A stretch of 64,000 nucleotides of DNA from Candidatus Omnitrophota bacterium (GTDB lineage: Bacteria > Omnitrophota > Gorgyraeia > Zapsychrales > Zapsychraceae): positions 5,295 to 69,294 of the forward strand of contig JAJDCA010000014.1 of NCBI GenBank assembly GCA_029261055.1, in the 5' to 3' direction. Below the pieces are notes generated by a model that made no database searches, was not told the origin of the DNA, and was given only the letters and a program-made list of their open reading frames with translations. Every line of letters begins with the position of its first letter. Within the stretch, counting starts at the first letter, position 1. Shown here piece by piece: positions 25,792 through 38,885 of this stretch. A program made the translations under genes and the position numbers.

Positions 25792-25833
25792 GAAAGACTG
25801 TTCAGATACATATTTAACATGTTTGACCCAAAA

Positions 25834-25856
25834 GGCTCCCCAACCGGGAGCCTTTT
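25834..25856 (+). terminator. GGCTCCC-CAAC-GGGAGCC hairpin followed by TTTT, the nrdB terminator
   Basis: Read directly. Confidence 0.7.
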
Positions 25857-25857
25857 C

Positions 25858-25948
25858 AATTCCGAACGGCCGTTCGGAATTGGCAGTTTGGATTAAGGGT
25901 TGAATTCCGACCGCAAGTTCCGAATTCCGACCGTGCGGTCGGAATTGG
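25858..25948. repeat. cluster of GC-rich palindromic units built on AATTCCGA(A/C)CG (REP-like)
   Basis: AATTCCGAACGGCCGTTCGGAATT, then GAATTCCGACCGCAAGTTCCGAATTCCGACCGTGCGGTCGGAATTGG. Confidence 0.6.
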
Positions 25949-32601: not shown

Positions 32602-34122
32602 TTAAGATATAGGTATAGAGTAATTTAAAGTTTTGTTTTTCAATACACGTCGACAATAAAATATAAAAATAATAAAAGCAATAATGCCAACGGCAAATAA
32701 AGTCCATTCCACTATCATACGTTCAATGCTACGGTTTTGAATATTAATCATATTGCCTGTCAGGCAGCCGAGATAAACGTAGAGGATGGTGCTTGGGAGT
32801 CGTCCTATACTTGACGCATAGATAAAATCTTTTAACCGCATGCTGGATAACCCGCAAATGTAATTTAAAAACATGGAACTGACAATTGGGATGTTACGTA
32901 ATAAGAGAAGAATTTTCCATCCTTTTTCCTCAATCAATTGATCGATGGCTTGCCATTGGGGGTTGGTTTTAATTCTTTTTGCAACGGATTCGCGGCACCA
33001 ATGGCGAGCCAAAAGAAATTTGATGATGGATGAGATTGTAGAAGCGATGGTAACGAGAATAATGCCTTGAGTCATTCCAAATAGAAATCCAGCACTTATT
33101 TTTAATATGAGAGCAGGTAGAAATAAACCTGCGAGCAGCAGGTATAGGCCCAGAAAGAGGAAAGGTGCAAAAATATGAAAATCTTTAATCCAATCGAGAG
33201 ATTGAAGATACATTTGTTTTACGCCTAATTTTTGTCCTAAAATACCGAATGCCGCTATCATCAATAACCAGCAAGCGAGTTTAACAAAGCCTAAATAGCT
33301 TTTATGTGTAGTTTTTTTTACAAGGGCCGGATTTTCATCGGCTTTCTTAGGCATTGGAATGTTTGGCGCCAGTAATTGGTTTATAAGTTCATAATCTTGA
33401 GGTTTATCTACATCAATGCCCATTTCCGGGTGGGGAGATGTAAAAATACGGACTTTGGCTTTTAAAAGGGAAGAAAGGATGATTTCAATTTCTGGAAAGG
33501 TTTTTCCTGTACATCCCAATAGTTCTAAAATTTTGTTAGGCTCTTTGCGTACTTTTCGGATGCGACCAATATAAGGAAGACATTTTAATAAAAGGCTGGA
33601 TTTACGAATGTAGTAAATATTTGTTCCGGTGTATTCTTTTCCCCCAATTGTCATATACGATCTGTCTTTAGACGGTAATCCAGCCTTGATTAATGTGGAT
33701 TTTTCAACATAATGCATCACGATATCCGCCTCTGATTGATCAATATTATGTAACGTGTTTTTAATAATTCTTGGCGTCAGAAGAGGGGCATCACAAAATG
33801 AAATGACATATCCTTGATGGGATTTTGCCATTTTATAAATAAAGAATTTAATATAAAGGACGGCATGAACAAGGTTTTGCAGAAGACTTGAGCCCTGAGC
33901 AAGACGTTTTTTGATATATTGCATTGAATTTAAATTGTCTAATTGCTTAGTGCCGACTACAATGATATTTTTAAAAATGTTGCTTTTGTGAAAAGCCTCG
34001 ATAACCCAGTCCAGCATAGGTTTGCCGGCAATCGGTAAGTGGGCCTTCATAGTGCAGGTATATTGTTGAGGCCAGTCTTTACGTTTGCCTCCAGCTAATA
34101 TTATAAGATTAAAATTCTTCAT
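32602..34122 (-). CDS. fusion protein: N-terminal nucleotidyltransferase (LicC/MobA-like NTP-transferase fold) plus C-terminal DedA/TVP38 membrane domain
   Basis: N-terminus LIILAGGKRKD...IAGKPMLDW resembles the sugar-/choline-phosphate cytidylyltransferase signature. The C-terminal ~230 aa are polytopic with a DedA-like pattern. First gene of the mla operon. Confidence 0.55.
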   Translation of the reverse strand: MKNFNLIILAGGKRKDWPQQYTCTMKAHLPIAGKPMLDWVIEAFHKSNIFKNIIVVGTKQLDNLNSMQYIKKRLAQGSSLLQNLVHAVLYIKFFIYKMAKSHQGYVISFCDAPLLTPRIIKNTLHNIDQSEADIVMHYVEKSTLIKAGLPSKDRSYMTIGGKEYTGTNIYYIRKSSLLLKCLPYIGRIRKVRKEPNKILELLGCTGKTFPEIEIILSSLLKAKVRIFTSPHPEMGIDVDKPQDYELINQLLAPNIPMPKKADENPALVKKTTHKSYLGFVKLACWLLMIAAFGILGQKLGVKQMYLQSLDWIKDFHIFAPFLFLGLYLLLAGLFLPALILKISAGFLFGMTQGIILVTIASTISSIIKFLLARHWCRESVAKRIKTNPQWQAIDQLIEEKGWKILLLLRNIPIVSSMFLNYICGLSSMRLKDFIYASSIGRLPSTILYVYLGCLTGNMINIQNRSIERMIVEWTLFAVGIIAFIIFIFYCRRVLKNKTLNYSIPIS

Positions 34123-34182
34123 AGGTATAAATTATAACAAAGTATTAGACAAATTTATTTAATAAAAGTTGATATTTAATTC

Positions 34183-34211
34183 TTGTAGATAAATGCAGAG
34201 ATTAGTATAAT
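34183..34211 (+). promoter_or_regulatory. promoter: TTGTAG, 17-nt spacer, TATAAT
   Basis: Perfect -10. Lies in the divergent intergenic region. Confidence 0.5.
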
Positions 34212-34254
34212 CAAATTAATAAATATTTCAACATGTAGCTTAGCGGAGGAAATT

Positions 34255-34977
34255 ATGAATAATAAATTACAAGAGATTTTGAAGAAGAATGCAGAATTTG
34301 AAAAAGAATCTCCGTATAACTTTTGTGATCGATGGTGTGAGCGTTGTGATTTTAAAATTCAACGACGATGTAAGTTGTATCTGGATGAATTAGACAGGCG
34401 TGCAACGAATATTGCCCACGGTAAACCTGAAAATGATTTAGAGATTCTTAAACAAGATTTTGAAGATCAGATGGAAGAGATGGAGGATTCGATTGACGAA
34501 TGGGCGGAAGAAGAAGGGGTTGATCCTTTCGAATTAGAACCCGATGAAGGTTTTGTTGAGGAGATACGAAAAAAAGAAGAAGAGCTGCACAAGCATCCTT
34601 TACAAAAAGTGACCTACCAATATATGAAAATATCACATGATTTTCTTAAAGAAGAATATTACAGTAAGCAAATTCTTACACAAGATATGAGGCTTAATTA
34701 TGAAATAGTGGCATGGTATCATAGTCTTCTTCCTGCGAAGATGCATCGTGCTCTGTGTGGTCTTTATGTACCGGATGTTCATGATGAAGAGGATTATGCC
34801 TTGTGTGATGCCGTTGCACAATTTGCTGTTTGTCGAAAATCTATTAGTTTGTCGGTTGCTTCCTTGCGTGAAATCGGACAGCAAAATAGCCAGTTAAAGA
34901 AGCGGATAACTCTACCTCTTACACTGCTCCACAATATGGCCAGTCAGATTGATATTATTTTAAAAGAGATTGGATAG
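34255..34977 (+). CDS. hypothetical protein with an N-terminal CxxxCxxC-x7-C motif and an acidic region
   Basis: CDRWCERCDFKIQRRC. Otherwise unrecognised. Confidence 0.4.
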   Translation: MNNKLQEILKKNAEFEKESPYNFCDRWCERCDFKIQRRCKLYLDELDRRATNIAHGKPENDLEILKQDFEDQMEEMEDSIDEWAEEEGVDPFELEPDEGFVEEIRKKEEELHKHPLQKVTYQYMKISHDFLKEEYYSKQILTQDMRLNYEIVAWYHSLLPAKMHRALCGLYVPDVHDEEDYALCDAVAQFAVCRKSISLSVASLREIGQQNSQLKKRITLPLTLLHNMASQIDIILKEIG

Positions 34978-35039
34978 TTCGACAGGTTTGTTTTACTTGT
35001 TTGAGAACCACAAGTAGAGAAGGTGTTTTAAAAATTTAT

Positions 35040-35113
35040 CGGGGCGTAGCGCAGTTTCCGCCACACAGCGTGGCGGATCCGCCAAAGTTTTGATGGCGGA
35101 GGCTAGCGCGCAG
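35040..35113 (+). pseudogene. partial duplicate of the tRNA-Pro 5' end (nt 1-29) interrupted by a 44-nt GC-rich double hairpin
   Basis: 35040-35056 equals tRNA nt 1-17, and 35101-35112 equals tRNA nt 18-29. The 35057-35100 insert folds as CCGCCAC-ACAGC-GTGGCGG and TCCGCCA-AAGTTTTGA-TGGCGGA. Confidence 0.5.
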
Positions 35114-35128
35114 AAAAAAAGAAATTAT

Positions 35129-35205
35129 CGGGGCGTAGCGCAGTTGGCTAGCGCGCAACGTTCGGGACGTTGAGGTCGACGGTTCAAATCCGTCCGCCCC
35201 GACCA
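35129..35205 (+). tRNA. tRNA-Pro (anticodon CGG), CCA encoded
   Basis: Manual cloverleaf: acceptor CGGGGCG/CGCCCCG, D-stem GCGC, anticodon stem CAACG/CGTTG, loop TTCGGGA, T-arm GACGG-TTCAAAT-CCGTC, discriminator A, CCA. Confidence 0.85.
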
Positions 35206-35236
35206 GTTTACCGTCGCTCATCGCGATATCAAAAAT

Positions 35237-35509
35237 ATGCTTCAATCCCATATCTTTTTTCACGGCATAGTTCAAGGGGTAGGATTTCGTTATACGGTTC
35301 AACGATATGCTGTGCGTTTGGATCTTAACGGTTGGGTAAGGAATGTGCCTGACGGGAGTGTTGAGGTTCTTGTAGAAGGGGCAAAAAAAGATATTGAAAA
35401 ACTTTGCCGGGATGTTGAAGAACATTTTTCAGGATATATCCGGAATAAGGAAATTCATTTTCTTGAGGACGCCGTACATAAATTTACAAATTTTAAAATA
35501 ATCGCCTAA
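35237..35509 (+). CDS. acyP: acylphosphatase
   Basis: VQGVGFR and GWVRN motifs in 90 aa. Confidence 0.85.
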   Translation: MLQSHIFFHGIVQGVGFRYTVQRYAVRLDLNGWVRNVPDGSVEVLVEGAKKDIEKLCRDVEEHFSGYIRNKEIHFLEDAVHKFTNFKIIA

Positions 35510-35600
35510 GAAATTGTCCATAAATAATTTGGACAATTGCTTGATAATCTTGGTATGAAATGCTGTTAAACTTGACCAGCTTATTTATGGACAACTCCTA

Positions 35601-38885
<3,285 letters not shown>

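Follow-up and report, generated by a model that had tools for sequence, protein, structure and literature searches.

How does a tRNA gene come to be preceded by a truncated copy of its own 5′ end, and what is the G+C-rich double hairpin by which that copy is split? The question is raised by a tRNA-Pro(CGG) gene in a 64-kb stretch of Omnitrophota DNA (the window; all coordinates are positions within the whole stretch, and comparison loci are designated by L and a number). Judged by its sequence, the double hairpin is a genuine member of a dispersed and widespread element family, here called E. The same combination of double hairpin, partial tRNA copy and intact tRNA gene, often with an open reading frame (ORF) for a GIY-YIG nuclease, recurs in other loci. 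We put at about 0.62 the probability that the window feature is the ORF-less relic of a selfish cassette of Omnitrophota that invades tRNA genes. The anatomy of the locus is as follows.

35030–35039, + strand: upstream copy of the 5′ flank of the tRNA gene (AAAAATTTAT, against AAGAAATTAT at 35119–35128), within direct repeat D1
35040–35056, + strand: copy of tRNA-Pro(CGG) nt 1–17 (5′ acceptor strand, 5′ D-stem, first half of the D-loop), 17/17 identical to 35129–35145
35057–35100, no strand assigned: family E double hairpin of 44 nt, TCCGCCAC-ACAGC-GTGGCGGA / TCCGCCA-AAGTTTTGA-TGGCGGA with central GGATCC, from the predicted fold and a profile search (hairpin 1, 35057–35077; hairpin 2, 35078–35100)
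35101–35112, + strand: copy of tRNA nt 18–29 (remaining D-loop, 3′ D-stem, start of the anticodon stem), 12/12 identical to 35146–35157
35113–35128, + strand: 16-nt A-rich spacer GAAAAAAAGAAATTAT, of which the final 10 nt are the repeated 5′ flank, from the sequence
35129–35205, + strand: intact tRNA-Pro(CGG) with encoded CCA, from ARAGORN, RF00005 and synteny with 18 other Omnitrophota loci

The gene at 35129–35205 was the single ARAGORN tRNA call in the window, and an Rfam search of 34000–36500 returned it as a full-length tRNA (RF00005, 66.7 bits) with nothing else significant beside it. A repeat finder recovered D1 (35030–35056 versus 35119–35145; 27 nt, 25/27 identical), which comprises 10 nt of flank and tRNA nt 1–17. 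The flank is A/T-rich, so that its outer 6 nt could be matched by chance; TTAT and the tRNA part together make up 21 exact nt. The 17-mer CGGGGCGTAGCGCAGTT occurs twice in the window and in none of 100 shuffles. Past nt 29 the tRNA copy diverges, and the 16 nt of GAAAAAAAGAAATTAT lead to the intact gene. The placement of the insert between nt 17 and 18 is unambiguous. These results bear out a sequence-only reading of the same DNA, which had described an intact tRNA-Pro(CGG) preceded by a copy of its nt 1–29, split between nt 17 and 18 and diverging thereafter.

That reading had also described the 44-nt insert as two similar GC-rich hairpins, conspicuous in their surroundings, and this too was confirmed. 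As single-stranded DNA, the insert is predicted to fold into two adjacent hairpins (−17.4 kcal/mol, z = −6.0 versus shuffles), with stems of 8 bp around a 5-nt loop and 7 bp around a 9-nt loop. Its G+C content is 61% by our count, against 38% for the region. The centre of the insert, TGGCGGATCCGCCA, is a perfect palindrome by itself, which makes alternative pairings possible among the four stem segments. The insert is unique within the window, and both of the CCGCCA..TGGCGG hairpins present in the 64 kb (0 expected) lie in it. The Logan assembly of run SRR15505515 gives the identical sequence until its contig ends inside the tRNA, and because every repeat is shorter than the 31-nt assembly word, an assembly error is unlikely.

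To which family the insert belongs was established by scanning metagenome contigs for a 26-nt signature with free loops, CCGCCA-N-TGGCGGATCCGCCA-N-TGGCGG. More than 120 metagenome stretches carried it among the matches listed, and viral contigs gave 0 matches. The refuting sign named by the sequence-only reading, a hairpin unit found nowhere else, is therefore contradicted. Of 113 distinct copies with flanks among the matches listed, 82 measure 42 nt from flanking T to flanking A. The two loops, of 7 nt each, have the consensus CAAWNCG and AGNWTTT, from which E can be described as an inverted dimer of a 21-nt hairpin unit. The flanks are T-rich before and A-rich after the element (T at −3 in 67% and at −2 in 58% of copies). 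The window copy has the stems T-CCGCCA..TGGCGG-A twice and the central GGATCC, an exact match at 35057–35100. Its loop 1 (CACAGCG) fits the consensus, and its loop 2 (AAGTTTTGA), at 9 nt, brings the element to 44 nt, as in just 2 of the 113 copies among the matches listed. A profile hidden Markov model built from 81 other E copies, with the window excluded, scored the window copy at 42.4 bits (E-value = 3.4e-11) and found no second copy within the window. The window copy is degenerate and probably inert.

The contigs that host E range from 37% to 67% G+C. Two hosts were checked and both belong to Omnitrophota: the window (38% G+C), whose LigA, encoded downstream of the tRNA, shares 65–69% identity with named Omnitrophota metagenome-assembled genomes (MAGs), a match that assigns its host to this phylum, and L118 (63% G+C), whose LysRS shares up to 87% identity with 'Candidatus Omnitrophica' proteins. 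Related double hairpins with inner stems TCCCGC, TCCCGA, CCCGAC and TCCCAC keep the frame TCC..GGA/TCC..GGA and the central GGATCC, and most of these hairpins sit on contigs that also bear E. All-against-all clustering of 1,628 ORFs from 120 loci among the matches listed revealed no transposase or recombinase family recurring near E; within 4 kb of E in these loci generic protein families alone recur (no Y1-specific profile search was made). A regular target-site duplication is absent in most copies, and about 15–20 have repeats of 12–77 nt. Literature searches on the motif, on GIY-YIG with tRNA genes, on COG2827/UPF0213 and on Omnitrophota repeats found no description of the E family, and the main Omnitrophota genomics paper makes no mention of hairpins, GIY-YIG or introns.

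In some loci both sides of E are flanked by locus-specific tandem pairs of 7-nt motifs (for example GATTTTC, AGTTACC, ATTGCGG), and other copies lie within one arm of long palindromes made of short motif repeats (CCACAGAG..). The loci with either arrangement are L099, L207, L174, L144, L095, L166; L134, L154, L169 and L186. The opposite palindrome arm of L169 holds a degenerate second E.

E is also found inside protein-coding genes. Long ORFs span 38 of 120 copies among the matches listed, and 26 of the 38 are read in frame as the 14 residues S-A-T-x-x-G-G-S-A-K-x-x-G-G. Five E-bearing ORFs were confirmed as real genes by Pfam, namely those for ValRS, PheS, AroA (EPSP synthase), ComM and CinA. 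The extra residues fall inside the matched Pfam domain in PheS, EPSP synthase, ComM and CinA, and between the catalytic and anticodon-binding domains in ValRS. L092 (1–6409) has three copies of the 3′ part of comM, with its in-frame E, within 6.4 kb and alternating with paralogous TPR-repeat genes, the product of either a segmental amplification or the joining of strain variants during assembly.

The association with tRNA genes is more specific. Among the matches listed, a tRNA gene is found within 300 nt of 17 of the 119 distinct E copies. Besides the window, there are 14 loci with a readable arrangement in which E sits in or beside a partial tRNA copy that adjoins an intact tRNA gene of the same anticodon (L100, L102, L127, L133, L153, L161, L179, L180, L190, L191, L194, L195, L197, L202). 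E is beside the tRNA fragment rather than inside it in L102, L179 and L190, and the L102 fragment is weak. The order is a short flank and the tRNA 5′ part with E, followed by the intact tRNA, in the window, L153, L197, L133, L195, L202 and L180; the mirror order, an intact tRNA followed by a copy without its 5′ end, or a 3′ fragment, with E, is found in L100, L127, L161, L190, L191, L194 and L179. The position of E within the copy is recurrent as well. It lies just before the D-loop GG (..AGTT/E/GG..) in the window, L100, L127, L153 and L161; the window site reads GCGCAGTT/E/GGCTAG, with TT before the element and E directly 5′ of the GG. The ..AGTT/GG.. site is also used twice in L215, by related hairpins. 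E occupies the T-loop in L191, L194, L197 and L147, and the remaining sites in tRNA copies are nt 8/9, 12/13, 13/14 or the anticodon loop. No E-bearing tRNA copy is complete at both ends in any locus. In L197, a perfect 77-nt direct repeat (flank and tRNA nt 1–54) directly abuts E on both sides, and in L202 a 21-nt repeat surrounds E and an ORF. Several partial tRNA copies each are present in L153, L215, L218 and L008. In L180, the intact tRNA-Ser and the displaced copy differ in sequence, which is what a cassette with a tRNA segment of its own would produce.

The ORF in these loci encodes a GIY-YIG protein of ~80–90 aa. It was found in 11 loci (L133, L195, L202, L180, L127, L014, L004, L210, L215, L218, L221), in the order partial tRNA, double hairpin, ORF, intact tRNA, or its mirror image. 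In five E loci (L133, L195, L202, L180, L127) the PF01541 ORF lies within 35 nt of E, and that of L195 is now a pseudogene. Two syntenic relatives of the window locus, L014 and L004, have PF01541 ORFs between partial and intact tRNA-Pro copies, and the partial copy in L014 contains a different double hairpin at the same D-loop site. A search that started from GIY-YIG protein homology alone recovered the cassette in 4 of 5 further loci (L210, L215, L218, L221), L222 being ambiguous.

A parallel to the window is L215. Its first half consists of tRNA-Asn nt 1–17, a double hairpin, nt 18–29 and an ORF that runs from ATG to a TAG inside the next copy; its second half consists of nt 11–17, a second double hairpin, nt 18–32, a spacer and the intact tRNA. 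This layout minus the ORF is the layout of the window. The ORF stops at the TAG of tRNA nt 8–10 in L133 (..FLDRVIPR-stop), L202 (..HLIQA-stop) and L215. By our own reading, the window spacer and tRNA start, in the frame that ends at the nt 8–10 TAG, give ..R-K-K-E-I-I-G-A-stop, and L195 has GAAAAAAATTAT directly before the tRNA. The window spacer, a low-complexity sequence, is suggestive of the relic 3′ end of a lost GIY-YIG ORF.

Two further features were noted beside these cassettes. The intact tRNAs in L210 (1848–2079) and L215 (1883–2113) have their anticodon loops interrupted by group I introns (RF00028, 89.5 and 81.2 bits), and ARAGORN misses both intron-bearing tRNAs. A gene for a large serine recombinase (Resolvase, Recombinase, Zn_ribbon_recom) lies directly downstream of the invaded tRNA-Asn in L215 (2206–3246) and L217 (1209–2249); islands may also integrate at this tRNA-Asn. 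A transcription start at the left edge of the duplication was rejected, as L202 has a perfect promoter-like TTGACG-17-TATTAT site ~45 nt upstream and just 9 nt of repeated flank.

The comparison of loci suggests a single cassette that brings in both duplication and hairpin and often includes a GIY-YIG gene. The simplest single form would be a double hairpin, a few tRNA bases, an ORF where present, a short flank and tRNA nt 1..n, inserted at tRNA position n. The full cassette, as present in relatives, comprises four parts: the 5′ part of the resident tRNA, split at a loop by hairpins of the type TCC-xxx..xxx-GGA / TCC-xxx..xxx-GGA (here E, at nt 17/18); 4–30 nt more of tRNA sequence; the GIY-YIG ORF of ~80–90 aa, whose 3′ end overlaps the next tRNA copy in several loci; and a short repeated flank that precedes the complete working tRNA. 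On the proposed mechanism, the nuclease would break an uninterrupted tRNA gene at a loop-coding position, and repair would copy the cassette-bearing allele, with conserved tRNA sequence as short homology arms. The left junction would leave the split, truncated copy and the right junction would rebuild an intact tRNA; the host would be unharmed, because the cassette carries its own flank and tRNA 5′ segment. The rebuilt gene could be cut again, and repeated rounds would produce tandem partial copies. The window cassette either lost its ORF, with the 16-nt spacer left behind, or never had one, like the non-autonomous forms at L197 and L153. The relic is probably inert; it would be transcribed in the 5′ leader and removed by RNase P. 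No sigma-70-type promoter was found between the partial copy and the tRNA, and the sole candidate is a weak site at 34949–34978.

Several points weigh against this reading. We infer the homing-like, nuclease-driven mechanism from the architecture of the loci and by analogy with known free-standing GIY-YIG endonucleases. The window has the partial copy with hairpin and the intact tRNA of the same anticodon, and no GIY-YIG ORF between them; tblastn with three cassette proteins found no GIY-YIG gene in the 64 kb, and with 16 nt between the copies the window is at most an ORF-less derivative of the cassette. Some 12 A/T-rich bases make up the whole likeness of the spacer to an ORF end, and the flank repeat is 8/10 identical versus 29/29 for the tRNA parts. 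In the window, the copy continues for 12 nt beyond E, placing E away from the duplication junction; duplication and E insertion could therefore be separate events. The truncation point of the old copy varies from nt 16 to about 43, and there is hence no fixed boundary common to the loci. E also occurs alone, with neither duplication nor nuclease gene, in protein genes and intergenic DNA, and may therefore move independently of GIY-YIG. Finally, because E copies were fetched by a pattern needing exact stems, the apparent invariance of the stems is partly a retrieval effect.

The best surviving alternative builds on some of these points. It holds that a tandem duplication of the tRNA 5′ end came first, that E, behaving like a miniature inverted-repeat transposable element, later entered the dead copy, and that no nuclease cassette was ever involved; insertions into a live tRNA would be lethal and hence never seen (survivorship bias). 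The solitary E copies at many non-tRNA sites, the distance of the window E from the junction, the missing GIY-YIG gene and a second partial tRNA copy without E in L153 all fit this scenario. It would require, however, that short partial duplications pre-existed at many unrelated tRNA genes, and it does not account for the direct repeats that abut the element exactly in L197 and L202, for the shared D-loop position of the hairpin in at least 6 loci (in L215, within both of its partial copies), or for the partial tRNA-Pro copies of relatives, which hold or adjoin a hairpin or palindrome. A decayed duplication hit by a miniature insertion was also the option of the sequence-only reading that came closest: the insert does belong to a dispersed family, but two unrelated accidents would be needed where the comparison loci suggest a joint cassette. 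We regard this alternative as unlikely, while taking it more seriously than any other.

Could the hairpins instead form a functional leader? In this alternative, which the sequence-only reading had offered as a structured leader co-transcribed with the tRNA, the hairpins and a decoy acceptor strand would control how the tRNA precursor is transcribed, processed or folded. The alternative pairings of the four stem segments are compatible with it, as is the flagging of TGGCGGATCCGCCA followed by AAAGTTTTGAT as terminator-like. The minimum-energy RNA fold predicted for 35030–35205 (−81.8 kcal/mol) has no cloverleaf and pairs the upstream decoy CGGGGCG with the tRNA 3′ acceptor strand, so that the decoy could compete with tRNA folding, and some relatives have a different, covarying AT-rich leader hairpin. 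That fold, however, is itself a prediction, and comparison with relatives speaks against a leader. Of the 26 best-matching loci scanned for tRNAs, 18 have the tRNA-Pro(CGG) gene upstream of ligA, and its neighbourhood of acylphosphatase, metallophosphoesterase and ligA is common to 18 other Omnitrophota loci. When the locus was compared among relatives, as the sequence-only reading had proposed, the insert was present in 0 of these 18 (exact pattern, relaxed pattern and profile), which makes a conserved leader unlikely; on this comparison, the E structure is lineage-specific. Nor was anything beyond a half-element in L034 found in ~0.9 Mb of ligA-region loci from 80 genomes. The same element is read in frame in ValRS, PheS, AroA, ComM and CinA, it also occurs downstream of tRNAs, inside 3′ fragments, and Rfam returned nothing for it even when E-values up to 10 were allowed. 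A functional leader is accordingly very improbable.

The same set of relatives gave partial tRNA-Pro copies with other hairpins in 6 of the 18 loci (L004, L008, L011, L014, L015, L031). In L008 (4650–4930), three tandem units each consist of a 42-nt flank and CGGGGCG; the third alone has the full tRNA-Pro, and units 1–2 have a single hairpin in place of the tRNA interior, then a degenerate 3′ acceptor strand. In L011 (4100–4410), two inserts interrupt an old tRNA-Pro; the second, bounded by TCCTGGC/GCCAGGA, contains a complete working tRNA-Pro, giving a tRNA gene within the T-loop of another.

The upstream regions of tRNA-Pro(CGG) in relatives have features of their own. A promoter-like site TTGACG-17-TAnAnT, followed by a conserved TTATTGTTAAC, precedes many of these genes in Omnitrophota (L003, L009, L012, L013, L024, L031, L033, L037); the window gene has neither the site nor the motif. 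In L002, L010, L011 and L012, an AT-rich leader hairpin lies 10–12 nt upstream of tRNA-Pro, with compensatory changes across genomes (CACTTATG/CATAAGTG, ATATTTACG/CGTAAATAT, TAATTTACGG/CCGTAAATTA), and may be a conserved leader structure of one subclade.

Less probable still is an attL/attR-type footprint of an integrase-driven island or prophage that entered the tRNA gene and was later deleted. Genes for tRNAs are classic integration sites, and partial tRNA repeats mark the ends of islands; in L215 and L217 a large serine recombinase gene stands beside an invaded tRNA-Asn. In the window, however, the 5′ rather than the 3′ part of the tRNA is duplicated, the copies are just 16 nt apart, no integrase adjoins the tRNA, and the insert comes from a 42-nt family also found inside coding genes. 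Moreover, no recombinase family recurs near E in the 120 loci among the matches listed, and 0 of the 18 syntenic loci have an integrase-bearing island between the repeats. Integrase-type excision was therefore rejected for its wrong duplicated end, missing integrase and 16-nt gap; of the excised-element footprint suggested by the sequence-only reading, what remains is that a mobile element left a relic here.

A D-loop intron in a tRNA gene, or strain variants joined into an assembly chimera, is barely credible and was rejected: the loop position of the insertion and the group I introns in related tRNA genes (L210, L215) would suit it, but the interrupted copy stops at nt 29 with no 3′ exon and a complete gene follows 16 nt away, E-bearing tRNA copies are nowhere complete at both ends, Rfam detects introns in L210 and L215 and none here, and the independent Logan assembly agrees across repeats that are all below its 31-nt word.

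How does the relic of a tRNA-invading cassette compare with known systems? The mitochondrial double-hairpin elements of Allomyces, the GC clusters of yeast and the PstI palindromes of Neurospora are described, through works cited in the sources given here, as short, G+C-rich sequences of 1–2 hairpins in A+T-rich DNA, dispersed with evidence of mobility through intergenic and intragenic sites, those of Neurospora beside tRNA genes (PMC2800124, PMC3787672, PMC4478555). E likewise consists of short G+C-rich hairpins dispersed in genes and beside tRNAs. The mitochondrial elements are organellar and eukaryotic and have no sequence similarity to the bacterial E, which differs in its fixed TCC..GGATCC..GGA frame, its length of mostly 42 nt and its one preferred reading frame, and in its association with partial tRNA duplications and a GIY-YIG ORF.

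Rickettsia palindromic elements (RPEs) are selfish palindromic repeats of ~100–150 bp that are not known outside Rickettsia and are tolerated in frame in housekeeping genes as well as in non-coding DNA. To our knowledge, no nuclease gene or target duplication is linked to them. The 14 in-frame residues that E adds in ValRS, PheS, AroA, ComM and CinA are reminiscent of RPEs, from which E differs in its length of 42 nt, its phylum and its recurrence in tRNA gene fragments.

REP/BIME/REPIN sequences (RAYT, Y1, IS200-like) and the PATEs of IS200/IS605 are short, often paired palindromes whose hairpins are recognised single-stranded, one enzyme serving many non-autonomous copies (PMC3333891, PMC3733652). 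E, as an inverted dimer of a 21-nt unit, resembles them in build. Unlike them, it has no GTAG or CGTC tag, ends in T..A within T-rich/A-rich flanks, and is not extragenic, since long ORFs traverse at least 26 copies in a single frame. No Y1 or other transposase family recurs near E in the 120 loci among the matches listed (no Y1-specific profile search was made), and the sole repeated neighbour is the GIY-YIG nuclease. IS200/IS605-type elements have two similar subterminal hairpins in direct orientation, insert 3′ of a fixed tetra- or pentanucleotide and make no target duplication. E has two similar hairpins, its target shows just a TT preference, flanking repeats are lacking in most copies and present in about 15–20, and no TnpA gene was seen near it.

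SegB of phage T4 is a GIY-YIG nuclease encoded among tRNA genes that cuts the allele lacking it, favouring its own gene and the flanking tRNA region (PMC2330249), and it is able to drive segmental amplification (PMC13096335). The cassette GIY-YIG gene is similarly placed among tRNA genes, and its products of ~80–90 aa are essentially the catalytic domain alone. Seg proteins are larger, have DNA-binding domains, are phage-borne, and are not known to leave partial tRNA copies or to have a hairpin module. Endonuclease ORFs of fungal mitochondria, as in the Allomyces atp6 hybrid gene, reportedly arrive with part of the adjacent gene, and the resident counterpart persists as a pseudo-fragment. The replacement segment in that case keeps the gene intact while the displaced piece decays alongside, comparable to the tRNA-Ser of L180; it differs in involving the 3′ end of a protein gene, in being organellar and in having no known double hairpin at the break. 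There are thus known analogues in mitochondrial double hairpins, GC clusters, Neurospora palindromes, RPE, REP/RAYT and SegB, and we found no published description of the E family itself.

The tRNA gene of the window is intact, and the feature in front of it is probably a scar that does this genome no harm. The scar led to a 42-nt palindromic element common to Omnitrophota of very different base composition, to in-frame E copies in aminoacyl-tRNA synthetases and other essential enzymes, and to a recurrent cassette of a minimal GIY-YIG gene, a double hairpin and a regenerated tRNA gene. If our reading holds, E would be a bacterial counterpart of the mitochondrial double-hairpin elements and of RPEs, with a candidate enzyme for a class of repeats whose movement is obscure. 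It would also explain the litter of tRNA fragments at tRNA loci of these MAGs, which can mislead tRNA counts, annotation and assembly.

More tentatively, and with the odds against it, the TCC..GGATCC..GGA hairpins and the ~80–90-aa GIY-YIG proteins might together form an unrecognised class of bacterial mobile element, with a structure-selective nuclease, a repair-copied cassette whose replacement tRNA 5′ segment would rebuild the host gene, and the 42-nt hairpin as its non-autonomous derivative. At roughly 330–400 bp, such a new class would be among the smallest autonomous mobile elements. Its nuclease would cut tRNA genes where they encode loops, or else T-rich single-stranded loops of other kinds, and the 42-nt hairpin would read as a harmless 14-residue loop rich in Gly/Ser/Ala on either strand, which would explain the colonised essential genes across Omnitrophota.

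The ORFs adjoining the window tRNA comprise one without a Pfam domain, the acylphosphatase and the metallophosphoesterase. An exact look-up of the downstream 241-aa protein gave no record. The upstream 240-aa ORF (34255–34977), which gave no Pfam match, has a Cys-rich N-terminus (CDRWCERCDFKIQRRC). Among its 171 homologues none exceeds 56% identity or is adjacent to this tRNA, and all source-named ones are from Omnitrophota; the collections contain no close relative.

Palindromic sequences occur elsewhere in the window. At 25830–25946, an intergenic cluster follows a terminator-like hairpin (AAAAGGCTCCC..GGGAGCCTTTT); its palindromes are built on AATTCCGA(A/C)CG / CG(G/T)TCGGAATT, with stems that likewise start with TCC and end with GGA, and it may represent a further hairpin-repeat family of the same genome. 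At 712–757, a perfect palindrome of 46 nt (AAAATCCAGGCTCACAGGCTCCGCGGAGCCTGTGAGCCTGGATTTT), flanked by A and T runs, resembles a bidirectional terminator.

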